The notes below the pieces were generated by a model that was given only the letters and a program-made list of their open reading frames with translations, was not told where the DNA came from and did no database searches. DNA of 55,868 nucleotides from a virus (taxonomy: Duplodnaviria; Caudoviricetes), in IMG/VR virus record IMGVR_UViG_3300009081_000016, positions 1-55,868 of that record. One strand, written 5' to 3'. Positions 9,271 through 55,868 of the stretch are shown here, piece by piece (positions within the stretch are counted from its first letter, which is position 1; every line of letters starts with the position of its first letter). Made by a program: the position numbers and the translations under genes.

Positions 9271-11694
9271 CTACAGTTTTTCCTGTGTTCCCCAAGAACT
9301 TCCAACGGCAAACTCGACCGGAGTCTTGACCTTTAGCCACGGTAGTTTGGGGTTTTCCATGATCTTTTTAGCGATTCCTAACGCCCGATTTTCTTCCCCT
9401 GGGTAGAGATCCATGAGAATCATATCGTGTATCAGATCGATAACCAATGATTGGAGTCCCTTTTCCCGGAAAGCCTCGGTTATACGCATAGAAGACAGGT
9501 CTGTGAGCATGCTGGCTGCGTTTTGTATTGGAGAATTAACAGCCTCCCGCTCCATAGATGATCTGTCTCGATCGTCTGAATGGGCGTAATTGGGAAACCA
9601 ACGTCGCGAACCGAAGGGGGACTCAACATAACCGTTCTTGATGATCTGTCGAACCACATGATCTCTAAACTCTCCTACTTCGGGATAAAGTTCGTTATAC
9701 CTTCTTAGAAAATCCCTCCAATACTTTATGGTCTTTCCGTGTTGTTCGTGCAATCCAATTTCGCTTTCCCCATACAGCACACCAAAATTAACTCGCTTGG
9801 CGTCACTGCGGATATTCTCCGCTACTGGTTCATCCGCAGGTATGGAGAAAACCTCCCGAGCAACGGCCTCGTGAATGTCACCCCCTGCCGAAAACACGGA
9901 CAACATATGTCGGCAGTTCGCTAATACCGCGAATATCCGTAACTCGATCTGACTATAGTCTCCCGAAGCAACCTTTCCATCCGGCCAACGCGAAATGAAT
10001 AGGGACTTAATATTGTACTCAGACCCCGAAGTGGACTTACGAGGGATGTTCTGTAGATTTGGTCCAGAGGACGACAGTCTTCCGGTCTCGGTATCGATGT
10101 TGAAATTGCTGTGGGCTAATCCATCTGACTTAACCCACTTTCGAACTGCGGTACCTGTATAGGTGGTAAGCAGCTTAACCAAAGTTGAACGTTCAACCAA
10201 ACCACGAGCAACAGGGTGATCGAATCGGGCGATTATGTCCTTCTCTGTTGAGGGCATCCCTGTTTCGGGGGTTACGTACGTTGTGTCCAATCCGCAATGA
10301 ACGTATAGAATCTCTCTTTTAACATTGGGAGATGCCCAAGCGCTCTTCTCCCCCAACTTCGTAGTTACCATTTTAGCTTTGGGGTGTAATCGTAAGAACG
10401 CCTCAACAGCCTTGGTCTTGCTAAGCTTTAAATCTATCGCCTGAATGGAGGCAAACAACTTGTTGGCCAACGCATCAGATGCCTGAAGATCAATCTTTGC
10501 ACCGTTCGATCTAACTGTCCTAAGATGGCCATTCAGAGGATGAAGAATTGTATGGTAGTAATCGGTCAACCCCTCTTTCTCCAAACGTGGAACGAACACC
10601 CGCTTCTTTAGAGTAAAAGTACAGACAGCGTCTGTTCCGTTGTAGACCGCCAGTTGTCTCCGGGAGGCGGAGGTCATAGATACCGATTTCTTCGGCGACT
10701 TAGACCTAACGCTCTCCTTGAAAACGGTCTTGTATCCAGCGTACTCAGGAAGATGAACAGCCACCATATAGGCCAAATCGTGCTTGGCGGATGCCGGATC
10801 GAGTACGTAGCTAAGAAGTTTTGTGTCCCAGACAAAATTGTTTACGGTAATTCCGACAACAACTTGCAGGTATAGAACATCGAAGTTTCCGTTCTGAGCA
10901 ATTATTTCACAGGGAAGGTCAAATACCTTTCGCCACACAGCAATATCGGATTCGGAATAAAAGCTAACCAACCCTATATCGTCTTCAGCACAGACCCCGA
11001 TGCACAGTATCTTGGCGTCCGTTGCCCATGGATCCTTGCCCGTAGTTTCAAGATCGAACGCAAACTCTTTCTTATCCCGTAGGTACCGTAATATTTCTTC
11101 CGGAGAAACGATATGAACTTCGGGAACCTTCATTTCGGCGGTGGTGCTTTCGTCGAACAGAACACTCATATCCTTTATGAACGTGTCCGTAAGTCGAGGA
11201 TCATAACCAATCGCCGCAGGATGGTACATCGGGAAGAAGGTTCTTCCTCCCTGAACGATCTTCCTTCCTCGCGCTTGTTTAATGGACTTGAGTCCAAGCA
11301 ATGCCTTGAGAGCGGTACCACCCAATGGAACTATTACTTTGGGGTCGGTTTCTTTTATCTCCTCCCCCAACCAACGCATACACGCTTTTATGTTCTTCGA
11401 ATCAGGAGTCGCATTTCCGGGAGGTCTGCAACGTACGGTGTTAGTGAAACGAACTGTTAGCTCCAGATCGTTGGCTCGTTCTACAAGACTCCGAAGACGT
11501 TTTCCGGAAGCACCCACAAAGGGTACGCCTTCGTCATCTTCCGTTGCTCCAGGGGCCTCCCCAACAAAGAGAATATCTGCATCGGCGGGACCATCGGGTC
11601 GAATGCAATTGCTACGACAATCGTGACACAGACTGCATCGATCGCATAGAAAAGACGCGGAATCCGACGGGACCCACCTATTTCCTTTTATCAT
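9271..11694 (-). CDS. polA: Family A DNA polymerase with N-terminal family-4 uracil-DNA glycosylase domain
   Basis: UDG: CDRC, FVGEAPG, FVGASG, NTVRCRPP, YHPAA. Exonuclease: FDLETTG, QNGNFD, YNGTD. Polymerase: DYSQIELR, AKRVNFGVLYG, IHD. Confidence 0.96.
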   Translation of the reverse strand: MIKGNRWVPSDSASFLCDRCSLCHDCRSNCIRPDGPADADILFVGEAPGATEDDEGVPFVGASGKRLRSLVERANDLELTVRFTNTVRCRPPGNATPDSKNIKACMRWLGEEIKETDPKVIVPLGGTALKALLGLKSIKQARGRKIVQGGRTFFPMYHPAAIGYDPRLTDTFIKDMSVLFDESTTAEMKVPEVHIVSPEEILRYLRDKKEFAFDLETTGKDPWATDAKILCIGVCAEDDIGLVSFYSESDIAVWRKVFDLPCEIIAQNGNFDVLYLQVVVGITVNNFVWDTKLLSYVLDPASAKHDLAYMVAVHLPEYAGYKTVFKESVRSKSPKKSVSMTSASRRQLAVYNGTDAVCTFTLKKRVFVPRLEKEGLTDYYHTILHPLNGHLRTVRSNGAKIDLQASDALANKLFASIQAIDLKLSKTKAVEAFLRLHPKAKMVTTKLGEKSAWASPNVKREILYVHCGLDTTYVTPETGMPSTEKDIIARFDHPVARGLVERSTLVKLLTTYTGTAVRKWVKSDGLAHSNFNIDTETGRLSSSGPNLQNIPRKSTSGSEYNIKSLFISRWPDGKVASGDYSQIELRIFAVLANCRHMLSVFSAGGDIHEAVAREVFSIPADEPVAENIRSDAKRVNFGVLYGESEIGLHEQHGKTIKYWRDFLRRYNELYPEVGEFRDHVVRQIIKNGYVESPFGSRRWFPNYAHSDDRDRSSMEREAVNSPIQNAASMLTDLSSMRITEAFREKGLQSLVIDLIHDMILMDLYPGEENRALGIAKKIMENPKLPWLKVKTPVEFAVGSSWGTQEKL

Positions 11695-12037
11695 CTATTC
11701 TAATCTCCCAGATTTCAAATGCAAGACTTCCTTGTGAATCGAGTTTGTTGGTCCAAAAGAACAGATTCAGCTTGGTAAGAGGATCTAATGACCCACAAAG
11801 GGCGTAAGCGTTCAAATCATTAGAGACCATAACGTCTCCGCCGTTGGCAACCAACATGAGTTCTGGTTCGGAATCCCCCGAAACAATCTGAAAGAAGTCA
11901 AATACAAGCGTTCGAATTTCCTTTCCGATAGTGAGTTCGATCCGCTTGCCGTTATTCTTCTGATTCCATTCGAGAAGCGGGAAGAAATGCACTCGAGCCG
12001 GATACCCCGAATTGTTTATTTCGGCGGGCAAGTTCAT
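11678..12037 (-). CDS. Hypothetical protein
   Basis: GGAGG before ATG 12037; overlaps both neighbours. Confidence 0.55.
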   Translation of the reverse strand: MNLPAEINNSGYPARVHFFPLLEWNQKNNGKRIELTIGKEIRTLVFDFFQIVSGDSEPELMLVANGGDVMVSNDLNAYALCGSLDPLTKLNLFFWTNKLDSQGSLAFEIWEIRIDDKRK

Positions 12038-13109
12038 GTGCTTTATCCTCCAATCGAATAAATAAACGTGCGTGCGCATTTGCTCCCAACTGTTCTGAGC
12101 CCAACCCATCCGCCGGGATCAGTTCCTCCTGAGGTCGATAGACGTAGCGCCGCTTGATCCGTCTATCCACCTGGCCCTCCAGCCCTGTGCAGTACTTGGA
12201 GAATTCGCATAGAGAATGTTCTATCGCTCGCACGTCCAAAGTAAGACTAAAGGGGGTTCCGGAAAAGAAACGTTGGAGGAGACACTCCTGGTTACGACAC
12301 AGATAGTAGATAAAATCTTCCGGGGTATCCAGAACTTGGGCAGCCTTATCAGTCAGATGCAAATTAATCATGGCGGAACCCAAAGGAGAGGTGGGCGGAG
12401 CAGGGGAAAATATCCTACGTAGGCCTCTCTTGGCCCCTGGCCCAGCGTTACACCAACTATCCTGTAAATAATCGGGAGTGAAACACCCAAACGGTGTGTA
12501 GGTCAAATCCGTAGCGATCTCGTACCCTATAAAACCACCTATCCCGGGCAGTTTACAGAGCGCCTCCCAGTAGTCTCGTAAATTGGGCTTGTCCAAAAGT
12601 ATATCATACAACCAAGGAAGAGAATTCGAAATTGTGCGAAGGCGTTTTACGGTCTCTCGAATCTTATTTGATCCTGGCCCTCCCGCCCGTATAATATAGG
12701 CTGAACCAAAAACAGGATCCGTATCCGCTATTTCTCGGAGACCCTCTTCGAAGCGTTTCCACCCAGCGGCACCCCAATTTTTGTTTACATAAGGATATCC
12801 CCATGGTAAATTCATGAGGGTCGTAGGACGGTTTATTAGGCGATACGCAATTATATTGAATACCAACTGGGCGTCGTAGGTTGGAGAGTACCTAATGATC
12901 TTTTCAAACAGCCAAACAGTTCCGCGATCGAGGTCTCGGAATACGTTGGTGAATCGATAGTCCCGAAGAATTGGATCATCCGTAAGAACGGTTTTGTGTT
13001 CGAGAAAACGCCGAACCCACATCTGATACCGTTCTTGAATCCAATACCAGAACAATCTCATGGCCACTGGGTTGATGGCCACAACGGTTTTCTTATTGGG
13101 AGTCGGCAT
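11952..13109 (-). CDS. aGPT-Pplase1 family (alpha-glutamyl/putrescinyl-thymine pathway, amino acid:DNA transferase-like)
   Basis: ER...RR...TDDPILRDYRFTNVFRDLDRG, HhH LPGIGGFIGYEIATDL, NAGPGAKRGL, IEHSLCEFSKY. Confidence 0.88.
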   Translation of the reverse strand: MPTPNKKTVVAINPVAMRLFWYWIQERYQMWVRRFLEHKTVLTDDPILRDYRFTNVFRDLDRGTVWLFEKIIRYSPTYDAQLVFNIIAYRLINRPTTLMNLPWGYPYVNKNWGAAGWKRFEEGLREIADTDPVFGSAYIIRAGGPGSNKIRETVKRLRTISNSLPWLYDILLDKPNLRDYWEALCKLPGIGGFIGYEIATDLTYTPFGCFTPDYLQDSWCNAGPGAKRGLRRIFSPAPPTSPLGSAMINLHLTDKAAQVLDTPEDFIYYLCRNQECLLQRFFSGTPFSLTLDVRAIEHSLCEFSKYCTGLEGQVDRRIKRRYVYRPQEELIPADGLGSEQLGANAHARLFIRLEDKAHELARRNKQFGVSGSSAFLPASRMESEE

Positions 13110-13596
13110 CTGATCTATCCCCTAATATGGAAATAACAGAAGTCAGTTCCCGGAGCAGATACGGGAGCAGCGCATGCGGATCGATGGGGGTGGGTTCTGG
13201 AACGATCCGCTCGTGGCGGTATTTTCTTACAGCCAGTTGTATGGCTTCGGCCAGACGATCTTCCACCAAACCGTTATCCGACTCGTTACCGGATCCACGT
13301 GAGGATGCTACGGCCCCGATCAAGGCGTATCCTGCGAGGTCAGTCCAAGGGTCTTCCTGGAGTGCAGATGGTGCGTGGGCAATACGCATGATCTTATCGA
13401 ATATTCTACCTAGTATAAAGGAGTCCCGCATTCGTTCGGGAGGAATTCCTTGGGGCCACAACAGAGAAAAGAATCGACCCACCACAAACGCACTACTTCC
13501 ATAGGAAGCATTTTTGTGGCCCAACAATTTTCCCAGAGAATCCCCCCGACTTAGAAATTCTTCGGATAGGGTCTTGAAGTTTTTAGGCTGGGCCAT
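13093..13596 (-). CDS. Nucleotide-modification-associated domain protein (Nmad1/DUF1599-like)
   Basis: KNASYGSS...RIFDKIMRI...EDPWTDLAGYALI; GGAG before ATG 13596. Confidence 0.7.
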   Translation of the reverse strand: MAQPKNFKTLSEEFLSRGDSLGKLLGHKNASYGSSAFVVGRFFSLLWPQGIPPERMRDSFILGRIFDKIMRIAHAPSALQEDPWTDLAGYALIGAVASSRGSGNESDNGLVEDRLAEAIQLAVRKYRHERIVPEPTPIDPHALLPYLLRELTSVISILGDRSDADSQ

Positions 13597-14320
13597 CGAA
13601 TAGACTCCCATTAAATATCTGAAGACGAATTTCCTGATACAAAGTTGTTTTAATTTCCATGGGTATTCTCCCTTTTTCATCATGAATAAAGGGAGCCAAG
13701 ATAAAACCACAAAGGGTTTCAAAGTTCGATCGGCCATTCCCGTCGGGTTTATCATTCCTGCAAAAAATACAGGGATTTAAACTGTCCTCGGGCAAACGCC
13801 GTGAGGCCAATTCTTCACACAAACTATTTGTGGTGATCTTCAAAACGTCAGCCATTTCCGGATCGGGGTTCCCTTTCTTCAGTTCCTGAGTGGCGTAAAG
13901 GTGCAGTTCGAGACGATCGAAGAACTTGACAACTCGAAACTCCAAACTGCTTAGACCCAAATCAGGGTGCGCCTCATTTACCCTATCCATGGAGGTGACT
14001 TCCGCCGAATACAGTTCTTCCCGAAATTTCTCGGAAGCAAAATTTTTGAAGGGATAGGGAATATCCCCTGAAAAGGCTTCAGGCCAATCGTGCTTAAGAA
14101 TACCACGAGATACTCTTACCTGATCCACACAAAAGCAGGGCCAAAACATTTCGTGCAGGAGCAGCGCAAATAACGTGTGCTCCGCTACGCTACGCTTCTC
14201 GTAGGTAAACATTAGACCGCAGTGGTTGATTCGCGATAACCGTTCATAGCTATTATATTTACGATGGCAAGGAATCGCGGCCTCTGTAAGTTGATACAGT
14301 CTATCATTGCTCTGGAACAT
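13583..14320 (-). CDS. HD-domain 5'-deoxynucleotidase (YfbR-like)
   Basis: SVAEHT, LKHDWPEAFSGDIPYPFK, VKFFDRLE; AAGGAG before ATG 14320. Confidence 0.88.
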   Translation of the reverse strand: MFQSNDRLYQLTEAAIPCHRKYNSYERLSRINHCGLMFTYEKRSVAEHTLFALLLHEMFWPCFCVDQVRVSRGILKHDWPEAFSGDIPYPFKNFASEKFREELYSAEVTSMDRVNEAHPDLGLSSLEFRVVKFFDRLELHLYATQELKKGNPDPEMADVLKITTNSLCEELASRRLPEDSLNPCIFCRNDKPDGNGRSNFETLCGFILAPFIHDEKGRIPMEIKTTLYQEIRLQIFNGSLFDGPA

Positions 14321-15425
14321 CGGATACACTCCTTGTGTTAGTCCAATCAACGTAGTGAGTCTGATTAGTCTTTATAACGGGAGATCGAATTCCGGCTAAT
14401 AGTTCTTGGACAGCCGCATTCTCCCCCCCTCTCCGCAATAGTTGGTGTATCTGAAATACCGAAACCCAGTCGTATAATTGCGCTGGAAATATTGACTCAA
14501 TGTCAACGGGGGTAAGTGGGTTGGGGCAATCGGGAACGCCCCCATCTCCCTGGGCCATCGCGCTGCCTACATTGTGCAAGCGCTCTACGTCCGATAAGCA
14601 AAGGGGTGAGGTAGACCCTCCGAATTCTCGAAGCGCAGCCGGGAACCAAAGTCCGCCAACGGGCATCCCGTTTTTCTCAAGAAGGTTTTTGGCCCGTTTC
14701 CAATGCCGTTCATAAAGATGTAAACAGCTAACGAAATGCGTATACTTGTGTGGGCGAACTTTCATTGTTCGAGTGGGGTCTTCCCGCATTATCATATCGG
14801 ATAGAACCTCCATCAACAATGACCACGTAAACAGATTGACGTTGCTGCCCCAAAGAATATCCATGGAACGCTGAAATATTTTCAGCGAGAGGAGAAAGTT
14901 TGGTTGCCCCCCGTTCCATTCGTCTGGTTCAAGAAGGACATGAAGAGCAAGATTGCAGGGAAGATCTTTAGTATGGCCCCGAGCGGTCAGATCGGCGGGA
15001 TGGGCTATCAATATAAATGCCTGGCGAGACAACGGATTATGGGCCAGCAAGTTGGCAACTTCCAGCAGTTGATCCGTCTTCATAATGTCTCCAATTGGGA
15101 ATGCTCTAATACGAGGACCGTATGCTGCCCTCCAAGCCTTACCGTTATCGCTGAAGTCCTCAGCCCGAGGAAGGTATACCTTCAACGAGGATATATAATT
15201 CTCGCCAAAAAGAACCCAACAGGCCTCGAACATGGTGGCCGCGAGACAGTCCCTACGATCCTGCAGATCCAGAACACGGAAGGAAGGTTCAGACAGCTGA
15301 ATAACCACGTCTTCCAATTCGAGAGACGCCTGATCTCGGCGTTCTATCTTCTTTCCTTCCTTGAATAACTTGGTCAGTCCGGCCAATAGAAAATCGCTGT
15401 TACCAACGGCGGTAATTAAATGCAT
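14304..15425 (-). CDS. Thymidylate synthase-family enzyme, probably dUMP hydroxymethylase
   Basis: AYGPR, DQL, SRQA, KDLPCN (catalytic Cys), QRSMDILWGSNVN (Asn at the dUMP-specificity position), LHLYERH; start reassigned to ATG 15425. Confidence 0.85.
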   Translation of the reverse strand: MHLITAVGNSDFLLAGLTKLFKEGKKIERRDQASLELEDVVIQLSEPSFRVLDLQDRRDCLAATMFEACWVLFGENYISSLKVYLPRAEDFSDNGKAWRAAYGPRIRAFPIGDIMKTDQLLEVANLLAHNPLSRQAFILIAHPADLTARGHTKDLPCNLALHVLLEPDEWNGGQPNFLLSLKIFQRSMDILWGSNVNLFTWSLLMEVLSDMIMREDPTRTMKVRPHKYTHFVSCLHLYERHWKRAKNLLEKNGMPVGGLWFPAALREFGGSTSPLCLSDVERLHNVGSAMAQGDGGVPDCPNPLTPVDIESIFPAQLYDWVSVFQIHQLLRRGGENAAVQELLAGIRSPVIKTNQTHYVDWTNTRSVSDVPEQ

Positions 15426-15458: not shown

Positions 15459-15514
15459 AAAAAGACCCCAGGTGGTCGAATCCGGCATTAAGACTCGACC
15501 AACCTGGGGGGGTC
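15459..15514 (-). terminator. Long hairpin followed by U-tract (intrinsic terminator)
   Basis: Minus strand gacccc(ccc)aggttggtcga...tcgaccacctggggtc followed by ttttt. Confidence 0.7.
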
Positions 15515-15680
15515 ATTCGCGGTGGCTCGCCGCGACCTTAGGAGGACTTGACCCTTTAAATTAGGGGAAGGCAGAACGTCAATCTATCCCAGATAAGTGG
15601 CGCCATTCCCTATCCGGTATTCACTAAAAGCAATTACGCTTTCGGTCAATTATGTTCGGACTTCTACCGAAACCTTCCCC
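15459..15680 (-). ncRNA. Candidate structured sRNA carrying an anti-Shine-Dalgarno segment
   Basis: ggggaagg/ccttcccc closing stem (15673-15680 / 15564-15571), internal hairpins, unpaired aagtcctcctaagg (15549-15536), hairpin, terminator; no credible ORF. Confidence 0.5.
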
Positions 15681-15683
15681 GAG

Positions 15684-15778
15684 AACGGGAGGCGGGATTC
15701 GAACCCGCACGCACCATGATCAGTACAGAGGGGAAACGAAGAAAACCCTCTCGCGTCTACCATTTCCGCCACTCCCGT
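15684..15778 (-). tRNA. tRNA-Leu-like (class II) element with aberrant 15-nt anticodon loop; no encoded CCA
   Basis: ACGGGAG-TG-GCGGAAATGGTAGACGC-G-AGAGG[gttttcttcgtttcc]CCTCT-long variable arm-GCGGG TTCGAAT CCCGC-CTCCCGT-T. Confidence 0.8.
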
Positions 15779-15802
15779 TACCTACGCGATGGCCGGAACG
15801 AA

Positions 15803-16711
15803 TTATTCCGGGTCTTCCCAACCCGCCTTCTCGTTGATGGCGGTGATGATGCGGAGACGATTCACCTGACGGGTCTTGGACTCTTTCCATGTCACGCCCA
15901 TCTTCTTGGCGAACTTCTCGAGAGCCTCGTCGTCGGCGAGCTCGTCCTTCAGCATCTTCTTGAACTTCGCCTGGGTGATTTCCTCGTCATCGTCTCCGGA
16001 CTTTTTCTTCGGGGGTTTCTCCTCCGTACCGCCGTTCTCTTCACCCTTGGTTCGGTTCCGGATGTCCTTCTCGTCTACGTCCTTCAGGGCGACGGCGTCT
16101 TCCTCCTCTTCCCCCGCGATCAGAACGTGGAGTTTCTTCTTGATCTTGACGATCTTGGCTTTCACCCAGTTGTCGTCTTCATCCCGCACCCAGACCTTGT
16201 CGTCTTCCTCGAGATCATCGAGGTCGTCGATCTTCGTGCCCGGAGCGGCGGACTTCTTTTCCTTGGGGGGTTTGTCTTCCCCTTCATCCGCGTTCTTGCC
16301 CTTCTTGGGCTTGGCTTCCACGCCGACCGTAAGGGTCTCGGAGTCTTCATCCCAACCGAGAGCGCACGTACCGTTGTCCGCCAGCTGTTCTGAGATCTCT
16401 CCGATGGCCAACGCAACGGCGGCTACGAGGGCGGAGTCGAGTTCTTTTTTCTTTGTCATGGATTTGGTTTCCTGCGTAATGGTTTGCTTTTGGGGCTGAA
16501 CGAGAAAGATTGGAGAGTTTTTCTTGAGACCGCTCCCAACTTCAACTCCCTCGGATTCAATGTACTTCAAAAGTTGGGGGGAGAAGCCACGGGTGCTTCC
16601 ATAGTTACCCAGTGTGTAGTTGATCACCTGTTTGCGTGCCCGATCATCGGGACACAGTTCATCGAGTTCACTCAGGTTCAACTCGTCCATAAGTTTGCTT
16701 AGGTCATACAC
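15803..16711 (-). CDS. Highly charged K/E/D-rich protein with Tudor/SH3-like and C-terminal HeH-like segments; second in-frame start at 16459
   Basis: LEEDDKVWVRDEDDNWVKAKIVKI; C-terminal ALEKFAKKMGV...RLRIITAI; TTAGGAGG before GTG 16711. Confidence 0.7.
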   Translation of the reverse strand: MYDLSKLMDELNLSELDELCPDDRARKQVINYTLGNYGSTRGFSPQLLKYIESEGVEVGSGLKKNSPIFLVQPQKQTITQETKSMTKKKELDSALVAAVALAIGEISEQLADNGTCALGWDEDSETLTVGVEAKPKKGKNADEGEDKPPKEKKSAAPGTKIDDLDDLEEDDKVWVRDEDDNWVKAKIVKIKKKLHVLIAGEEEEDAVALKDVDEKDIRNRTKGEENGGTEEKPPKKKSGDDDEEITQAKFKKMLKDELADDEALEKFAKKMGVTWKESKTRQVNRLRIITAINEKAGWEDPE

Positions 16712-16720
16712 AAATCCCTC

Positions 16721-17284
16721 CTAAGGTTTAAAGCCTTCTGTCCCTTCATCCAGTGAAACGTTCCTGCCAAACCGTTGTTCATAGTCCTTTCTTAAACGCT
16801 TGAACGCTGCCCGTCTTTCCCGATTACTTTTTCCTACAATAGAAGTAAGAATAGACCAACGGAATCCCCCTATCCGGATCTCCATCAACAACTGCCGTCG
16901 TTCCGGATTTACAACCCCCCGCATAAAACGAGCAGCAACTAAGTTATCGGTGTCGAATGCAACTTCAAAAAGACGGTCAAGCAATTCGTCCTTATCGATG
17001 CCCACCAGTAGGTCGTCTTCAAAATCAGAAACAACCAAATCAATATCATCTTCTATAGACTGAAATCTATTACGCGTACGTAACGATCTTCGGTAATCCC
17101 TACAAGAATTTAGTATGATTTTACCCGCCATACGAAAGAAGTCATTCCCGTATTTCGTATAGGCATGCCATGAAGATATAAGAATGATCTGATAAAGTTC
17201 GGCCCAATCACTTCGAGCGTATGCTCGAGCGGCAGCCCGTAATCGGTGATCGTTCTCTGATAACCAAGTATCCCAACGCTTCAT
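16721..17284 (-). CDS. ECF-like sigma factor (region 2)
   Basis: RLRAAARAY...AELYQIILISSW...AGKIILNSCRDYRRS. Confidence 0.65.
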   Translation of the reverse strand: MKRWDTWLSENDHRLRAAARAYARSDWAELYQIILISSWHAYTKYGNDFFRMAGKIILNSCRDYRRSLRTRNRFQSIEDDIDLVVSDFEDDLLVGIDKDELLDRLFEVAFDTDNLVAARFMRGVVNPERRQLLMEIRIGGFRWSILTSIVGKSNRERRAAFKRLRKDYEQRFGRNVSLDEGTEGFKP

Positions 17285-17970
17285 TTTCCCCCCCCAAACC
17301 TTTTTCGTCTAATCGTAAGAATCTTTTCGGGAGAGGACTTCTTTGTAGAACGCGCCACTCTATTCCCCCGATCAAAGAATTTGGAGTAGAGGCGTTCAAG
17401 ACGTAGCGTATTATCATCGTCCGGAACTACGATTTCTTCCCCTCGCTTAATCGCGCTCCAAAAGGCTTTGGCTTCCTTCCTTTCCTCACTTCGCTTTGCT
17501 CGGCGCTCCTGCCGATCCAAACGTTCCTTCTTGATACGGGCGCAGGTTTCCCAAGCTGCGTCCACTTCGTCCATTGACAGGGTAGGAGCCACGGCGGGAC
17601 AGCGCTGAGCTATGTATTTGGGCTTAGTAATTCCGAACCATTCGGCAGACAGCAGACCTCTCTGATGCTTTAATTCAAGGAAGCCTATAAAGCGGCCATC
17701 CTCCAAAACTTGGTCACTGGAAACAGTCAGCAACTTTTCCGCGTGACCCACCCGTTCGAAGGTGCATATCCATCGGGGAACAGAGGGGTCCTCATCACCC
17801 ACCAAACGTTCCGTAAGTAACCATTTTGTGTGGTGCAACCCAATCGCAACCTTCTCCCACTCCGGACAACGATCCGGTTCAGCCAACTCCAGCGTAACGA
17901 CATCCCCTCGCCTGAGCCAGAGTATTTGTGCTCGAACGAGGAATAGCCCTTTCCTCTCGTACCAATTCAT
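17281..17970 (-). CDS. Hypothetical early protein
   Basis: TTAGGAGG RBS; 229 aa. Confidence 0.75.
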   Translation of the reverse strand: MNWYERKGLFLVRAQILWLRRGDVVTLELAEPDRCPEWEKVAIGLHHTKWLLTERLVGDEDPSVPRWICTFERVGHAEKLLTVSSDQVLEDGRFIGFLELKHQRGLLSAEWFGITKPKYIAQRCPAVAPTLSMDEVDAAWETCARIKKERLDRQERRAKRSEERKEAKAFWSAIKRGEEIVVPDDDNTLRLERLYSKFFDRGNRVARSTKKSSPEKILTIRRKRFGGGK

Positions 17971-17990
17971 AATGTCCTCCTAAGAAATAA

Positions 17991-18059
17991 ACAGAACTCC
18001 CCCCGTGGGTGGGGTTCCATTAGTCGGACTGGGGAAAATCCGATTCGGGGGGAGTCTGT
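17991..18059 (-). ncRNA. Structured intergenic element (multi-branch stem with C-rich loops)
   Basis: Outer stem acagactccccccg / cggggggagttctgt; inner tcgga-ttttccccag-tccga. Confidence 0.5.
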
Positions 18060-18083
18060 AATTGCAAGAGCCAATTTTGGGGT

Positions 18084-18659
18084 TTACCCTTCGAGGAGTT
18101 TCTCCAACAGGGAGATGATGCGACTCTGCTGCTTCTCGAGATTTTGAGTCGTCTCATATATCCGACGAACCGCTTCGTTCTTGCCCACACGTCCGGTCTT
18201 TTCTTCCTTGTTTTTCCCATAACCGAAGTGCTTCTTGAGGGCACCCAGCAGGAACATATGTTCTACCGACTCATTTCCGGTGGACTTTGGGCAGGGTATG
18301 GAGTTCTTCTCGCAGAGTTTACGCATCGCGGCGTTGCTCATAGCCTTTAGAGACTTTAGAGAAGGACGATCCCCTTCTTCCTGTTCTTCAACATCAGGAC
18401 GTTCCTTTTCAACAACCGCAGCCTTCTTTTTCTTCTTGTCTTTCTTGTCGGGAAGATGCATGTTCGTTTCTCCTTTCAAATTCCGTATGGTTCGTATTTC
18501 TTTTAGAAGCGGATTGTAACGTTCGGGCTGATGGTAGTCTTCGGCCCACCTCTCCCGTAGGTTGGGGGCAATGGCGGATTTCTGCAACGCTTTAACCTGC
18601 AGTGCTTCCTCCACCCGACGTGCCGCACGGTTCATCCGAGATTCGATCAATATCTTCAT
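18084..18659 (-). CDS. Lys-rich protein with HeH/Rho-N-like segment and C-terminal coiled coil; strong internal start at 18461
   Basis: SLKAMSNAAMRKLCEKNSI; AAAGGAG before ATG 18461; ATGA coupling at 18659. Confidence 0.65.
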   Translation of the reverse strand: MKILIESRMNRAARRVEEALQVKALQKSAIAPNLRERWAEDYHQPERYNPLLKEIRTIRNLKGETNMHLPDKKDKKKKKAAVVEKERPDVEEQEEGDRPSLKSLKAMSNAAMRKLCEKNSIPCPKSTGNESVEHMFLLGALKKHFGYGKNKEEKTGRVGKNEAVRRIYETTQNLEKQQSRIISLLEKLLEG

Positions 18660-18946
18660 GAGACTCTTGTAAGATCTCCCTGTGAGGAGACATTCCAAAC
18701 GGGATCGGCGCTGTTGGACGCCAAAAAGTTGTAGCCCGATTCCATTGTCCGAAGGATACTAACCATTTCGGGACGTGCCTTGCTTAAGGAACTCCTTTCA
18801 TACCACAACGTAGAACACCCGAAGTATTCCACCTCTTCGGAGGGGGGAACTCCCAAAATCTTTTGGGCTATCCATGAGTGAAAGAGGCGCAGGGTAATGT
18901 TGAAGAATCCTCGGTGGCTTGTTATGGCAACCAATTCGTAAGTCAT
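18656..18946 (-). CDS. Hypothetical early protein
   Basis: ATGA-coupled at both ends. Confidence 0.65.
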   Translation of the reverse strand: MTYELVAITSHRGFFNITLRLFHSWIAQKILGVPPSEEVEYFGCSTLWYERSSLSKARPEMVSILRTMESGYNFLASNSADPVWNVSSQGDLTRVS

Positions 18947-19359
18947 AGAGACGTCCCTTCCTTCGTCGGCGAAGAAAACTTTGAATCGCCGTCACAAATG
19001 TCGAGTAGAACACGCAGTTGCAAATTGGGGCGGTCACTCTCATATACCACAATCGGAACCTCAGACCAGTGGACATCGTCGGCGTCCCAATACCGCCGAG
19101 TGGTTCCCTCAACTTCCTGGAGGTATAGGGTATGGGTGTAGCGGGACATTGATATACCGCTTACCCGGAAACCCGCCTCCGTAGCCTTCTTATATAGGTA
19201 CTCAATCTGTCGGCATACGGTATGGTCTTCGTACGACTTCTCGTTTAACCTCCCGGCCAAGATAATCGCGTCCGGATCAGATCGGCAAGTGTACTCCTCC
19301 AAATCTCCAGGGATGCTGTACACGTTACGACCTCGGGCCTCGAACTTTTGATTGGACAT
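18943..19359 (-). CDS. Hypothetical early protein (downstream of hammerhead 1)
   Basis: TTAGGAGG RBS before ATG. Confidence 0.75.
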   Translation of the reverse strand: MSNQKFEARGRNVYSIPGDLEEYTCRSDPDAIILAGRLNEKSYEDHTVCRQIEYLYKKATEAGFRVSGISMSRYTHTLYLQEVEGTTRRYWDADDVHWSEVPIVVYESDRPNLQLRVLLDICDGDSKFSSPTKEGTSL

Positions 19360-19384
19360 AATAGAATCCTCCTAAAGTGTTCCC

Positions 19385-19463
19385 TGGCTTGCCATCATCG
19401 GTGCCTACGTAGCCAACGTAGACAGAAGAAAGAGGTGGTCACGGCACCTCTTTCGTTTCGGCA
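19385..19463 (-). ncRNA. Type II hammerhead ribozyme with pseudoknot (HHR-1)
   Basis: tgcc GAAA c gaaagaggtg-loop-cacctctttc t TC | tgtctacgt tggct acgtaggca CCGATGA t ggca agcca; loop I tggct pairs with 3' tail agcca. Confidence 0.85.
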
Positions 19464-19484
19464 TAGGGGAGGAAGAGAAAAGGA

Positions 19485-19799
19485 TCAGTCGGCGTTTGCC
19501 TTCAGTTCCTTGCGGTATTCCCGCACCTCGCGGACGGTGTCGGAAAGATAGGCAATCACGACCTTCGCGGACTGGTGCATCCGGCACTCGTTGCGCTTCG
19601 CATGAAACTTGATGGCCTTCTTCCAGTCGCCGGAATCAACCAAGCCGATTTCCGCCTTGTCCAGCGGATAGCGGTCTACCAGCTTGACGCGTTCGACGTT
19701 CTTTTCGGCTTTGGCTTTCTTCTTGGCTTTCTTCTTGCCGCCGTTGGAGGTTTCGTCTTCTTCGTGACGATGCTTTTTCGCTACTTTGATTTTCGCCAT
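19485..19799 (-). CDS. Small Lys-rich basic protein
   Basis: MAKIKVAKK...KKKAKKKAK; GGGAG before ATG 19799. Confidence 0.75.
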   Translation of the reverse strand: MAKIKVAKKHRHEEDETSNGGKKKAKKKAKAEKNVERVKLVDRYPLDKAEIGLVDSGDWKKAIKFHAKRNECRMHQSAKVVIAYLSDTVREVREYRKELKANAD

Positions 19800-19856
19800 G
19801 ATCGGATCTCCCATGATTTGGGTTTGTGGTTTTCCGTAATAACGGAGGGTATTGTT

Positions 19857-20276
19857 TTAGGCGTGCAACAGACCACCGCCAGTAGCGGCAGTATCAGACA
19901 TAACTTCAGGTATCTTGATCGCGACCTCCTTCGGAGAGGCCTGAACCTTCCAAGTGAGCAGACCCCAAACGGAGAGTTCGCTGCCTTCTGTCTCGGACGT
20001 TACCTGAATTCCGTAGGCTTCGGCCACCGTGGCCGCAGGATCAAAACCTGTGTATTCGTGCTCGATTGCCTTGCGGATCTTGGTGGAACTGAGCGAAGTA
20101 GGAATGCCTTCGTGGCCCTCGATCGTGGATGTAAAACCGCTTATCAGTTCCTTAAACGTAAGATCGGCATCGAGCGAAACAGAGAATAGCGATTCTCCCG
20201 GTCGGTTGTGGTGGTCGGTAAGATTATCGGCCCCACAAACGTCAATTTGTTTGAATGAACAGCCATAGGTTGGCAT
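19857..20276 (-). CDS. Hypothetical early protein
   Basis: CCTTAGGAGGACTT-ATG leader. Confidence 0.75.
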   Translation of the reverse strand: MPTYGCSFKQIDVCGADNLTDHHNRPGESLFSVSLDADLTFKELISGFTSTIEGHEGIPTSLSSTKIRKAIEHEYTGFDPAATVAEAYGIQVTSETEGSELSVWGLLTWKVQASPKEVAIKIPEVMSDTAATGGGLLHA

Positions 20277-20300
20277 AAGTCCTCCTAAGGATTGTTAAAC

Positions 20301-20714
20301 CTAAATCACAGTTCGCGGGTGTATCAGGTGATTGTCTTGGATCTGGTGGTGGAGAAACACTGTGTGAGAACCGTCTCCGGTAATAGGGAGGTAGATGTCC
20401 AACGAGTCCATGGAAGCATCCATTTCGTCGGTGTATCGATAGTAGTCCAGATCCCGAAACGACCCTCCCCACTCGAGCATAAGTTCGGAAGTGTTTTGCG
20501 AGTGCAGATAGACACGAACCAATTCTCCCAAACAAGTAACGGTCAGCTGGTAGGCGGAATCCCAAACTTGCATAATAAAACCGTTGGGGGAGCGTCCAGT
20601 GAGCGGCAAATTAATCACCCGCAAAGCGGGGGAGAAGGATCCATGAGTGAACGATCGTTTCAGAATCTTCTTGAAATCGTTCACCGTCTTGGGTTTGGGC
20701 AGTACCTTAATCAT
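20301..20714 (-). CDS. Hypothetical early protein
   Basis: AAAGGAG RBS; ATGA coupling. Confidence 0.7.
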   Translation of the reverse strand: MIKVLPKPKTVNDFKKILKRSFTHGSFSPALRVINLPLTGRSPNGFIMQVWDSAYQLTVTCLGELVRVYLHSQNTSELMLEWGGSFRDLDYYRYTDEMDASMDSLDIYLPITGDGSHTVFLHHQIQDNHLIHPRTVI

Positions 20715-21295
20715 CGGTAGCTCCTTTCAACAAAGGAAACAAAGCCGAAGAAGAAAACGACGTCCTCCGTCGGTTCCTTATCGTTTGGATCGTCTTTCGC
20801 CAACAGAACCTGCCCAACGTTTGGATCGAGTGCCAACCAATCGGTAATGGCGTGTTCCGCCTCATCCAATTCGATCCCTGCCTCCAGAGCAGAAACCATC
20901 AACGCATCGTTATTGGAGAGAAGCGATTCTACCATCTCTCGTTGCGTGGTATTATTGTTCAGATAGATGAAACTGAATCCAGGGAGTTCTACCGAAGGAA
21001 ACTGCGAGATGGGGCTAATCCCCAGCGTAACGAAGACAACCCTTCGGGGAGGTCTCCCGAAGATAATTGGTTTCGTACCATCGCAGAGGTTGTTTCCGAT
21101 GATCGAAAGGTTGCATAAATAATTGGTAACGGTTTTGAAGGATGGGTCGTTACGGATGACCCGGTCTTCCTCAACGTAGACTATGTTCGGTTCGCTATCT
21201 TGGGGGAGGTCCCCCAAAACATAACCACCAATCTCTGGTCTCCACAAGCAGCCATTCTCGGTCAACCAGTTTTTTACTTGTCGGGAAGTAAGCAT
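20711..21295 (-). CDS. Hypothetical early protein (downstream of hammerhead 2)
   Basis: TTAGGAGG RBS; first gene after the large non-coding region. Confidence 0.75.
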   Translation of the reverse strand: MLTSRQVKNWLTENGCLWRPEIGGYVLGDLPQDSEPNIVYVEEDRVIRNDPSFKTVTNYLCNLSIIGNNLCDGTKPIIFGRPPRRVVFVTLGISPISQFPSVELPGFSFIYLNNNTTQREMVESLLSNNDALMVSALEAGIELDEAEHAITDWLALDPNVGQVLLAKDDPNDKEPTEDVVFFFGFVSFVERSYR

Positions 21296-21326
21296 GACAG
21301 AATCCTCCTAAGGAGTTGAAACCGTG

Positions 21327-21405
21327 GGCTTGTCATCATCGGTGTGTAGGGAGCCACCCTAACACAGAACGCCAGGTTGCGGGAACAATACCTGGCGTTT
21401 TCGAC
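21327..21405 (-). ncRNA. Type II hammerhead ribozyme with pseudoknot (HHR-2)
   Basis: gtc GAAA acgccaggt-loop-acctggcgt TC | tgtgt(t)aggg tggct ccctacaca CCGATGA t gac aagcc. Confidence 0.88.
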
Positions 21406-22020
21406 GTCGAAAAGGTAGCGGCCGACATCTCGCTTCCGGTCGTGGGCTGATTACCTGTGAACTCCAGTTTTAAACCAGAACAAACCGTTTTCTGAACAGA
21501 CCTTTCGCGTCCCATTGAATTCGCCCACTCCCTCCGCAAGTTTCTCAACTTGGGGTCGGCTAATGAGGGCATGAGAAAGAGCAAGGCGTGGTTTTCGCGA
21601 TAACCGCGAGAGACGCTACCGGGATTCAGCGGCACAGACGGGGGTCCCTTTCCAAAGGGGGTCAACCGTCGTCATGTCAGAGAACCGTAACCTTTACGCA
21701 TTCAATTTACAAAGAAAAAACCGCTTTCGCAAGAACTTTCTGGGGTTTCTTAGGGCTACTAAGTTAAGCAAAACCGGAAACTTAGGGGTAAAAGCACCTG
21801 AAAAGGAGAGGCGTAACAACCCCCCTTTGGGCCCCTTTTCGGGGGGTATTAAGTTACGCAAAAAAAGAAAGTTAGCCAAAATCGTCCTTTAAAGCCTCTT
21901 CAGGGCGTCCCCAGCTGGGGGGGTATAAAACCCCTAACGGCCGGAATACCCCCCGTAGACGACCCCCCAGGAGGGTAAAACCCCCGATAACGGGGTCTTC
22001 ATGAAGTAAAACGTCTGAAA

Positions 22021-22108
22021 AGGGGGGGTTGCTCACCCCCCTATAATATGTATTATCTATTATATAGAGTTATACATATTTAAGAATAGCTAACGCTATT
22101 CTTAAATA
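22021..22108. other. Candidate replication origin: AT-rich tract with tandem inverted repeats
   Basis: Perfect 14-bp IR tatttaagaatagc-taac-gctattcttaaata (22077-22108), aatatgtat/atacatatt IR, agggggg/cccccct; immediately downstream of primase. Confidence 0.5.
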
Positions 22109-22119
22109 GCTCTCGCGTC

Positions 22120-26654: not shown

Positions 26655-28223
26655 CTAAGCTTCAACAAGAACACAGATGTGTCCCGCTACATCCCCTGTT
26701 GTAGCAAGAACCAAAGCCTCTCCTGCGGCTGTTTCAAGCAAATGAGAGGATACTTGACCCACAGCAACTAAGGGAATATTAGCGGCTAAATACATAATAC
26801 CTGAAATAGCAGTTGTAGCTCTTTTGAACTGTACTTGAATAGCCTCCTTTGCAACAAGAACATAACTAACCACCTTGATCTTTTTATCTGTTACACCCGC
26901 AAGGATGGTTATGTCTGAGCTACCTGAAATTGAGAGGAATTGTACATCGGAAGATCTCCCCTGAAGAGTGGCTACTGTCCCACGCCCTGCTGTGTCCACC
27001 TGAATGTTTCGAGCATCTCCCGCACTGTCTACACCTGATATTGGAAGAGAAAAAGAGGGGACATCTGATCCGGGGGTTGATACAGGAATAAACTGTGCAT
27101 TGTTAGCAGTATCTTTTCCAAGAACAGGAATTCCATAAGCAGGGGTACTCACTAAGGCATTTCCCTGCGTCACTAAATCCAGTGGATAGCCTGTATCGTT
27201 GTCTACAATTTTTACGCTCCCCGACACAATGGCCGCACGAGCATTTACCCAAAGTGCCCCATAGTCATCTGTAATAAGGGGGATATAGTCAAACTCGTCC
27301 CCTGCTAAAGCAGTGCAGTCTTTGTTTCTAACTGCCAAAGCCATCACCCCAACGTCCCCAGATGTATGAGCCGCGTCCTCTGCCTTCCCTAAATTGGTTG
27401 CTGCTACACCGGGGACAATAGCACTTACCCCCACAGTTCCATCTACTGTAATAGTATTTCCACCGTCTTGAATGGTTACAGTTCCTGTAATACCGGGGAG
27501 AGAAGATACAGCTACAGTTCCATCTACAGTTATTGTATTTCCCCCATCTTGAACAATTAACCCGCTTCCCGCAGCCGTTACCAAGACAGAATAGTCTGCG
27601 GCCAATTGTAAAGCTCCGTAACCGTCTGCGCCAACAGAGTATCCCCCTATTGGAACAAAATAAAGATTAATATTATCGTCCTGATAGAGAGTCAGATCAT
27701 GTGTTCCATCCGTGAGCCTAACCCTTCCAATATAGTTTGTGGTAGCCTCAGCACGGATGGATAAATGACCAGAGGAGCTTATTTTAGAGTGATAGACATT
27801 TCCAGAATAGTCCGTTCCTAATAACATAACCCCATAGGGGGTACCTGTTCCAGCACTTTGATATTCTCTTGGACCCGGATAGGAGGATACAGCTACTGAT
27901 CCATCTACTGTAATGGTGTTTCCACCATCAGCAATGTTAACATTCCATGCCCCACTTTGAGTCGCAGCGACTGTTCCATCTACTGTAATGGTATTTCCGC
28001 CATCTTGGATGGTCACAGTTCCCGTAATGCTGGGGAGAGAGAGAACGTCTATCTGAAGATGCCCTGCTGCATCTGTTAAAATCAACTGTGCTTGTGACCC
28101 GTCTGACCCCATTAATAGAGGAGAGTAGGGAGTACCCACAATCTCCACACCAGCGGGGTGAAGGGTCAGGCTGTGTACATCATTTGTTGCATGGATGTAG
28201 ACGTCAGTTGGATCGAAGCTCAT
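26655..28223 (-). CDS. Tail fibre/spike-like protein with internal repeats
   Basis: Four DGGNTITVDG(T/S)V repeats; G/T/V-rich; distal end of the tail operon. Confidence 0.65.
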   Translation of the reverse strand: MSFDPTDVYIHATNDVHSLTLHPAGVEIVGTPYSPLLMGSDGSQAQLILTDAAGHLQIDVLSLPSITGTVTIQDGGNTITVDGTVAATQSGAWNVNIADGGNTITVDGSVAVSSYPGPREYQSAGTGTPYGVMLLGTDYSGNVYHSKISSSGHLSIRAEATTNYIGRVRLTDGTHDLTLYQDDNINLYFVPIGGYSVGADGYGALQLAADYSVLVTAAGSGLIVQDGGNTITVDGTVAVSSLPGITGTVTIQDGGNTITVDGTVGVSAIVPGVAATNLGKAEDAAHTSGDVGVMALAVRNKDCTALAGDEFDYIPLITDDYGALWVNARAAIVSGSVKIVDNDTGYPLDLVTQGNALVSTPAYGIPVLGKDTANNAQFIPVSTPGSDVPSFSLPISGVDSAGDARNIQVDTAGRGTVATLQGRSSDVQFLSISGSSDITILAGVTDKKIKVVSYVLVAKEAIQVQFKRATTAISGIMYLAANIPLVAVGQVSSHLLETAAGEALVLATTGDVAGHICVLVEA

Positions 28224-55411: not shown

Positions 55412-55745
55412 GGTAGATACTTGATACGCTCAGTCTCGCTACTCGCAGAATGGCGTATCGCTCTCCTATCATCCAGTATCACTTGCTTACCAACAACGAT
55501 TCGCATAACAGGTTAGCCTCCGGCAGTCGGGTTTACACTTACTTATGTCACTTCCCACCCACTCGCGCGCAGAAGTAACTTAAAGTAACTTGACGCCACA
55601 TAACGTGGCGTATGCTCATAGTATAGGGGGGTACCAACGACCTAACTTACCTAATACCCATGAAAACAAACGCAATCAGCAGACCAACAACAAAACTAAG
55701 AAAACCGGAAAGGCAACGATCAGATGCGTTAAATGCTGACATAAA

Positions 55746-55868
55746 ACCTCCGGAATATCCCCCCTTCTCCCGGTAAAGGGTAAAACAGGGGGTAGAAACG
55801 GTGCTCAAAACCCCTAAAATAACGTACCGCAGCGGCCCCAGAGGGGGTTTTCACAGTAAAATTAGGGG
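55746..55868. repeat. Terminal direct repeat, right copy
   Basis: Identical to 1-123. Confidence 0.97.

Follow-up and report, generated by a model that had tools for sequence, protein, structure and literature searches.

Two genuine-looking variant type II hammerheads and an unexplained tRNA-like element in an otherwise orphan phage

Introduction

Type II hammerhead ribozymes, as described in the part of Perreault et al. (2011; PMC3088659) that is drawn on here, have a pseudoknot between loop I and the tail and a stem II of down to 2 bp. Clustered hammerheads were described that flank prophage genes, and it was proposed that they process long phage transcripts into gene-length mRNAs (PMC3088659). 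According to the portion of PMC5320573 used here, RNase P releases the C4 RNA of phages P1 and P7 from a longer transcript, and this RNA blocks a ribosome-binding site. In this work we analysed the complete virus record IMGVR_UViG_3300009081_000016 of IMG/VR, which is 55,868 bases long and has a terminal repeat of 123 bases (hereafter, the window is this whole stretch), and in particular two hammerhead-like elements, HHR-1 and HHR-2, a tRNA-like element and a non-coding tail that accompany a ten-gene operon on its minus strand. We would file the finding as two variant type II hammerheads, together with a tRNA-like element that is unexplained, in a phage that is otherwise an orphan. In the reading that we favour, with a probability of about 0.62, a ten-gene phage unit with a probable extracytoplasmic function (ECF) sigma factor inside gives rise to an RNA that is punctuated by the two type II hammerheads, and the elements of the region are separate ones of known kinds.

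A sequence-only reading of the region had listed six elements, namely the two hammerheads, a multi-branch element, a tRNA mimic, a structured RNA complementary to Shine-Dalgarno (SD) sequences and a terminator, and all six are present in the window. It also knew of no described phage system combining such parts; several hammerheads flanking prophage genes were published in 2011, and the hammerhead-gene arrangement is therefore of a known kind (PMC3088659, in the part drawn on here).

Results

Two members of a self-cleaving family in the window

On the minus strand, the 18-nt word CACCGATGATGRCAAGCC is present at two places, 21327-21344 and 19386-19403, with a chance expectation of 0.02, and two matches were seen in 0 of 100 shuffles. 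A covariance model, R1, was constructed from 17 Rfam-positive relatives, leaving out the window and all copies with an extra U in the core, and both strands of the window were searched with the filters off; the E-values of the model are rough. Exactly two full-length matches were obtained, HHR-1 at 19382-19463 (25.5 bits, E 2.8e-5) and HHR-2 at 21323-21406 (25.3 bits, E 3.2e-5), and the 8 others of the 10 matches listed had E≥1.7. This drop in score, from 25 to 9 bits, clearly sets both hammerheads apart. Membership in a known self-cleaving family, which the sequence-only reading had proposed, is supported by the R1 matches at both sites, and HHR-1 and HHR-2 are genuine-looking, variant type II hammerheads and new members of the family. 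Their family membership, positions and folds are shown by these data. As a third candidate hammerhead, 17991-18059 was considered and gave no R1 match. The parts of the two elements are the following:

21323-21406, minus strand: HHR-2, type II hammerhead (R1, sequence reading and fold)
21405-21403 with 21334-21332, minus strand: stem II of HHR-2, GUC with GAC; G12-A14 at 21402-21400
21399-21368, minus strand: stem III of HHR-2 (10 bp); C17 at 21367
21366-21343, minus strand: stem I of HHR-2, loop UGGCU at 21356-21352
21342-21336, minus strand: core C3-A9 of HHR-2, with C at position 4; extra U at 21335
21330-21327, minus strand: tail AGCC of HHR-2, which pairs with loop I (4 bp)
19382-19463, minus strand: HHR-1, type II hammerhead (R1 and fold)
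19463-19460 with 19393-19390, minus strand: stem II of HHR-1; G12-A14 at 19459-19457
19456-19426, minus strand: stem III of HHR-1 (12 positions, one C-U mismatch adjoining A15.1-U16.1); C17 at 19425
19424-19402, minus strand: stem I of HHR-1, loop UGGCU at 19415-19411
19401-19395, minus strand: core of HHR-1, with C at position 4; extra U at 19394
19389-19385, minus strand: tail of HHR-1, which pairs with loop I (5 bp)

The order of parts is the same in both copies: a 3-4-nt strand, GAAA, a long hairpin, U-C and a hairpin with the loop UGGCU, and then C-A, CCGAUGA, U, the complement of the first strand and AAGCC. Read in this way, the order corresponds to the type II layout, with stem II open, stems III and I closed, and the tail pairing with loop I. 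The three helices around the core were recovered in the full-model R1 alignment of both copies, and the minimum-energy fold of HHR-1 is a three-way junction. Both have G12, A13 and A14, an A15.1-U16.1 pair and, at the cut site, H17, as well as U-A, G-C and A-U at the core-adjoining pairs 1.1-2.1, 10.1-11.1 and 15.1-16.1. By sequence reading C17 falls at 21367 and at 19425, in agreement with the cleavage sites 21367/21366 and 19425/19424 that had been predicted. The stem sequences differ between the two copies with the pairing kept, and the middle pair of stem II covaries, being A-U in one and G-C in the other.

Just upstream of HHR-1 there is a C/U-rich run (19466-19480, minus strand) that could pair with the SD of gene 5, and cleavage would sever this run from that SD; in the predicted fold, part of the run extends stem II of HHR-1 instead.

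Relatives in other viral contigs

The exact 18-mer was found in 18 viral-contig stretches, with the same layout in 4 of them (L010, L013, L014 and L017), two of which, L010 (38.7 bits) and L013 (37.1 bits), pass the cut-off of the Rfam phage hammerhead family RF02276 while having the very 18-mer of the window. A gapped-pattern search returned at least 120 matches, and when 20 relatives were tested in Rfam, RF02276 was reported with E≤1 in 15 and above its 37-bit cut-off in 12, with no report in the remaining 5. In an alignment of 29 rows, 98.5% of 393 cells pair, compared with 74.5% in shuffles; two-sided changes were seen in 10 of the 14 pairs, the covariation score was reached by 0 of 500 shuffles, and slid registers came nowhere near. 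Since this alignment is model-fitted, the pairing counts lean toward the structure. A loop I/tail helix of at least 4 bp can be drawn for 45 of the 48 elements, which use 24 distinct helix words; helix length averages 4.52, whereas permuting the tails lowers the average to 3.71 (at most 4.125 in 200 permutations).

The form of the 18-mer with the canonical U4 was found in 50 viral stretches, 40 of which have R1 matches (41 in all), and the five records with extra-U copies have one or two R1 matches each. The forms with C4 and with the extra U are natural variants, seen in a minority of relatives, and not damage specific to this phage. L014 has a tandem of near-identical type II hammerheads at 546-614 and 1006-1074 (about 460 nt apart), of which one carries U4 and the other C4, and the effect of U4C could be measured on this natural pair. 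Some contigs among loci L220-L269 have 3-4 copies of this hammerhead subtype (e.g., L231, L232 and L260; L234, L241 and L263), mostly 1-3 kb apart, with two in L241 only about 240 nt apart.

An SD, a start codon and an open reading frame (ORF) follow within 90 nt downstream in 39 of the 44 distinct well-formed relatives, and in 37 of these 39 the start lies at 22-39 nt; because many of the 44 come from one phage group, they are not independent. The window hammerheads end 40 and 35 nt before a start codon.

Proposed role of the hammerheads and departures from the consensus

The two hammerheads delimit the following blocks of the operon:

19485-21295, minus strand: genes 1-4 (194, 137, 139 and 109 amino acids), the block between both hammerheads (ORFs)
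15803-19359, minus strand: genes 5-10, the block after HHR-1 (ORFs)

In the reading that we favour, each ribozyme would cut after C17, the upstream piece would end in the long stem III hairpin with a 2′,3′-cyclic phosphate, and the downstream piece would start with a 5′-OH followed by the stem I hairpin with its pseudoknot, and a start codon would come 35-40 nt after these. In this way the transcript would be split into a leader, genes 1-4, and genes 5-10 plus the tail, and the split would uncouple the stability and translation of the blocks, like a natural insulator before each ribosome-binding site. Cleavage in vivo, and its effect, are what we infer from these observations, and the self-cleavage part of the sequence-only reading is plausible and of a kind already described for phages.

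A number of observations weigh against this reading, and both copies depart from the consensus. No Rfam hammerhead was reported in the window at the gathering level or at E≤10, 150-nt pieces included, and when Rfam was run on the whole window (gathering level), on 9 kb (E≤10) and on four short pieces, tRNA alone was reported. Neither window copy reaches the RF02276 gathering cut-off (37 bits), and both are the weakest R1 rows, at 25 bits compared with 25.4-81 for the other 27. The curated core C3 U4 G5 A6 N7 G8 A9 is altered in both copies by C4 and by the extra U after A9, with six positions fitting, and the curation in the part of PMC3088659 drawn on here rejected any core change. The cut-site triplet is UUC in both, stem III has 10-12 bp against 4-6 bp in most relatives, and the stem III pair 15.2-16.2, which is A-U in HHR-2, is a C-U mismatch in HHR-1. 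Finally, two RNA libraries contain pieces of the region, and one contig (21204-21586; 383 nt, depth 22.4) crosses the cut site of HHR-2 with no sign of cutting, while another (15565-15715) bridges the predicted 3′ end of the tRNA-like element with no sign of processing. These data are contigs without RNA ends, for which DNA in the library is possible and uncovered parts are uninformative, and the two contigs neither show processing nor exclude it.

The same departures could mean that both elements are decayed and non-cutting, and that only their hairpins matter, with stem III serving to terminate transcription or to shield the 3′ end and stem I to shield the 5′ end. The U4C core, the extra U, the mismatch next to the core of HHR-1, the long stem III, the low model scores and the contig across the HHR-2 site would all fit this alternative, as would the listing of HHR-1 stem III as terminator-like in a terminator scan. 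However, position 4 and the extra U apart, both copies have kept the core, A15.1-U16.1 and C17, along with the pseudoknot and all three stems; stem sequences have diverged between them with the pairing maintained; and U4C and the extra U are seen again in viral contigs that are independent and pass Rfam. Decay is an unlikely explanation. As for activity, the change U4C considerably lowers cleavage in vitro and yet suffices for viroid infectivity (PMC3088659, in the part drawn on here), and real but slow or partial cleavage is therefore to be expected. Cutting by both elements is probably slow or partial, given the U4C core and, in HHR-1, the core-adjoining mismatch.

A tRNA-like element with a non-standard anticodon loop

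The second unusual feature of the region lies after the last gene of the operon:

15684-15778, minus strand: tRNA-like element (Rfam tRNA and ARAGORN)

The Rfam tRNA model RF00005 scores 39.5 bits on this element (cut-off, 29), and the tRNA-like fold is sound. The element has a 7-bp acceptor stem, a Leu-type D arm, a long variable arm and a canonical T arm, and in the ARAGORN drawing obtained in intron mode its acceptor, D, anticodon and T stems, four in all, show full pairing. Instead of a seven-base loop with a readable anticodon there is a 13-nt loop on a 6-bp anticodon stem, no CCA is encoded, and a U follows the acceptor stem. ARAGORN called the element Glu(ttc), with a mismatched stem, or in intron mode Lys(ttt), with a 6-nt "intron"; since the first call needs the mismatched stem and the second the intron, the tRNA identity is unreliable. 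With a sound fold and a non-standard anticodon loop, "tRNA mimic", the name given to 15684-15778 beforehand, is a fair one. We infer that any role of the fold would be a non-decoding one, most likely that of a handle for RNase P, RNase Z or another tRNA-binding factor.

The 18-mer of the D arm was found at 60 viral loci, 35 of them under ARAGORN tRNAs, of which 30 are tRNA-Leu. At the other 25 loci (L139-L198) no ARAGORN tRNA lies over the 18-mer, and in some of these a matching acceptor and T arm were seen by eye, with a long insert between the D and T arms; the 25 loci may represent further non-canonical tRNA-like elements of the Leu type, or else tRNAs with an intron. Origin from a host tRNA was considered and rejected: the 24-mer of the T arm and acceptor occurs once in the genome collection, outside any tRNA. 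This lone match (L212, 201-224) lies on a contig of a Limnocylindrales metagenome-assembled genome, in 424 nt of which ARAGORN finds no tRNA or tmRNA. The complement of the 13-nt loop is not enriched in the window, where it has 6 matches compared with an expectation of 3.26; 9 of 100 shuffles gave a count as high.

A probable ECF sigma factor inside the operon

The operon also encodes a protein that bears on its control:

16721-17284, minus strand: gene 9, 187 amino acids, probable ECF-type sigma factor

Gene 9 has an Atlas feature score of 0.96, with 19 of 30 matches in the Sigma70_r2 set, and five full-length homologues with 30-41% identity were found among 1.84 billion representatives searched. 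When a profile of 6 homologous sequences was compared with PDB chains, sigma factors made up 10 of the 11 matches listed, the best being SigE (E 2.2e-4, positions 3-154). No Pfam match and no PHROG family were obtained for gene 9 at the thresholds used, and its single-sequence structure model (predicted local distance difference test score, pLDDT, 46) was unusable for a structure search. Because Pfam is silent and the structure model unusable, the assignment as an ECF-type sigma factor is probable and not proven. A sigma factor would be the ordinary way for such an operon to switch the phage programme, and the claim of an RNA-only control of the operon is to that extent weakened.

Tail, terminator and branched hairpin

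The non-coding elements around the end of the operon, together with one between two of its genes, are the following:

15556-15683, minus strand: structured non-coding stretch after the tRNA-like element (predicted four-way junction, z -2.1)
15510-15554, minus strand: three-way junction that holds the anti-SD word at 15536-15549 (predicted folds)
15459-15509, minus strand: intrinsic terminator, a long G/C-rich hairpin and then UCUUUUU (fold)
17991-18059, minus strand: branched G/C-rich hairpin between two genes, then a U-rich run (predicted fold, z -3.6)

The structured stretch 15556-15683 matched no Rfam family, and most of it is covered by the RNA-library contig 15565-15715. The fold of 15459-15580 has z -4.7, and the predicted terminator is convincing, its stem having a bulge in the prediction; it was not listed by a simple terminator scan. 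The branched hairpin at 17991-18059, without a match to any Rfam family or to R1, is possibly a leaky terminator or a stabilising hairpin. The G/C stem of this hairpin contains the end of an RNA-library contig, at 18049, to which adapter-like letters are attached; this may be a fragment end or an artefact.

The stretch 15459-15683 might also be thought of as the leader or attenuator of the downstream nucleotide-metabolism and replication genes, with an internal promoter and the terminator as a regulated stop. Since only about 35 nt separate the terminator from the next start, at 15425, there is no room for a promoter after it; the downstream genes need read-through or an upstream promoter, and the gene of the probable phage sigma factor lies just upstream. 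However, a sigma-70 scan found no promoter-like site there, shared intergenic motifs marking a phage promoter were not found in this stretch, no alternative antiterminator pairing was seen by eye, and an RNA-library contig connects the region to the tRNA-like element. We consider this arrangement very unlikely.

An anti-SD word in the tail

The word TCCTCCTAAGG (RNA sense, 15546-15536) is the exact complement of the SD word CCTTAGGAGGA, a complementarity that is directly observed. With at most one mismatch, CCTTAGGAGGA has 9 matches in the window, 7 on the coding strand and 5 at start sites of the operon:

20277-20290, minus strand: gene 3 leader with an extended SD, a 14-nt perfect complement of 15536-15549
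21303-21313, 19367-19377, 17975-17985 and 16716-16726, minus strand: the other four leaders with CCTTAGGAGGA (at most one mismatch)

It had been claimed that the processed 3′ tail of the transcript feeds back on these leaders as a timer of the early-to-middle switch: tail RNA would be freed behind the tRNA-like fold, and its anti-SD word would shut the five SD leaders. A complement of 11 nt to an SD word specific to this operon, extending to 14 nt with the gene 3 leader, would fit such a circuit, as would the predicted duplexes, which are stronger for the five leaders (-21.6 to -25.3 kcal/mol) than for six other starts (-7.1 to -18.1 kcal/mol). The word is placed in a junction just before the terminator, as in small RNAs derived from 3′ ends, an RNA-library contig is present at 15565-15715, and the C4 RNA of P1 and P7, in the part of PMC5320573 used here, is a precedent. 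However, the same repeat search of 6.9 kb gave an evidently fortuitous perfect inverted repeat of 13 nt between two coding stretches, and by our own estimate the chance expectation of a 14-mer inverted pair in that length is about 0.09. In the predicted fold of the 11-mer, its CCU is paired with its AGG (unpaired probability 0.05-0.22), which leaves the middle CCUA open, so that 6 of the 11 bases are held in a mini-hairpin and the seed is half paired, its mean openness ranking 59 of 215 windows. TCCTCC is common on the RNA strand (about 20 occurrences), the sole contig over the 3′ end of the tRNA-like element bridges that end, and an ordinary protein switch is at hand in the sigma factor that the operon probably encodes.

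Functional pairing of the anti-SD word is thus suggestive only. The timer draws on one complementarity of 11-14 nt that is half buried in a small hairpin, and it is less likely again than the leader or attenuator; no evidence was seen that the elements are integrated into one feedback circuit, and they are better described as separate elements of known kinds. Least likely of all is the full combination, in which slow variant hammerheads with a terminator-like stem III, a tRNA-fold handle and an anti-SD word titrating five leaders would act beside the sigma factor in closing the early phase.

Genome context

The credible genes of the 55.9-kb phage genome are all on the minus strand, and along the direction of transcription they are arranged as follows:

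First, minus strand: unknown genes
Second, minus strand: terminase, portal, head and tail genes
Third, 26105-22120, minus strand: helicases and primase
Fourth, between the primase and the ten-gene operon: a 0.7-kb non-coding region (21407-22119, minus strand; sequence reading and word count)
Fifth, 21295-15803, minus strand: ten small genes of the operon
Sixth, after the operon: the tRNA-like element and the non-coding tail
Seventh: thymidylate-synthase-like enzyme, HD-domain protein, 5-hydroxymethyldeoxyuridine (5-hmdU) DNA kinase, and DNA polymerase fused to a uracil-DNA-glycosylase-like domain

The ten operon genes gave no Pfam or PHROG family at the thresholds used, and the "early" status of the block and the label "first gene" are assumptions and not observations. 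In the non-coding region ahead of the operon (21407-22119) the primase gene is followed by a terminator-like hairpin at about 22018-22045, and there are also G/C-run hairpins and a 15-nt word that occurs twice (21757-21771 and 21847-21861); a sigma-70 scan of this region found no site resembling a sigma-70 promoter. Several ordered 10-11-mers are common to this region and to the genome-end region 55507-55868, and the two may be related regulatory regions.

The genes at 9271-15425 (minus strand) look like a DNA-hypermodification set, with the thymidylate-synthase-like enzyme, the HD-domain protein and a 5-hmdU DNA kinase domain (PF18723), and the family A polymerase among them has the uracil-DNA-glycosylase-like domain at its N-terminus. 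The start of the synthase-like gene is most likely 15425, rather than the ATG inside the terminator (15488), because the PHROG and Pfam matches cover the longer ORF only from residue 22-43 onward. Within a 522-amino-acid gene with no function assigned, a 71-nt repeat is present four times at 27433-28040 (63-87% identity to the reference copy), which suggests a repeated protein module, as in tail fibres. The idea of a restriction site was not borne out, CCTNAGG showing no enrichment in the window (12 against 14.6 expected).

With 6.1 kb of the region as query, blastn gave no match to GenBank phages, and the thymidylate-synthase-like protein gave no match in viral and metagenome contigs; its best non-self protein matches have 34-41% identity, and the phage DNA polymerase has at most 29.9% identity to any match. 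A tblastn search of the window proteins against all hammerhead loci retrieved gave no match. The phage itself is nearly unchanged in runs of nine studies, with a single differing base in the runs compared, and at this near-identity those runs are uninformative on covariation.

Discussion

Two genuine-looking type II hammerheads escape Rfam entirely in this window, and, since a C4-subgroup model recovers two that Rfam misses, phage hammerheads with a variant core are probably under-counted. If the proposed cutting is true, the long stem III and the 35-40 nt to the start codon would make these elements a convenient natural case for effects on mRNA stability and translation. The tRNA look-alike, with its intact Leu-type body and 13-nt loop, poses a small puzzle in itself. 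If true, an RNA-only timer would be notable; its support is one complementarity.

The closest relatives are the phage and prophage hammerheads of RF02276, with which the window copies share the loop I/tail pseudoknot, the order of parts and a stem II that is open and has 3-4 bp; in both cases several copies flank genes in one transcript, each just before a ribosome-binding site. Unlike RF02276, the window copies have C4, the extra U after A9, a stem III of 10-12 bp and the cut-site triplet UUC instead of GUC, HHR-1 has in addition the C-U mismatch, and both remain below every Rfam reporting level.

RiboJ is a synthetic ribozyme insulator that is placed before the ribosome-binding site. Like RiboJ, each window element would be a self-cleaving hammerhead with a hairpin directly ahead of an SD, where it would remove the upstream RNA context; RiboJ is engineered, whereas the natural role of the window elements is suggested by their position alone.

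For the tail, the trailers behind bacterial tRNA genes, such as the leuZ 3′ external transcribed spacer, act on small RNAs. The window resembles these leuZ-type trailers in having a structured RNA between a Leu-type tRNA fold and a terminator, which could base-pair; those trailers belong to real host tRNA operons, whereas in the window the tRNA fold is non-decoding and leaders of the same operon would serve as the putative partner. The feedback idea has its nearest precedent in the C4 antisense RNA of P1 and P7, with its tRNA-like RNase P site and its loop that occludes the ribosome-binding site (PMC5320573, in the part used here). In contrast to C4, the window has no sequence or structure match to the Rfam C4 family, and its putative antisense word stands at the 3′ end behind a full cloverleaf.

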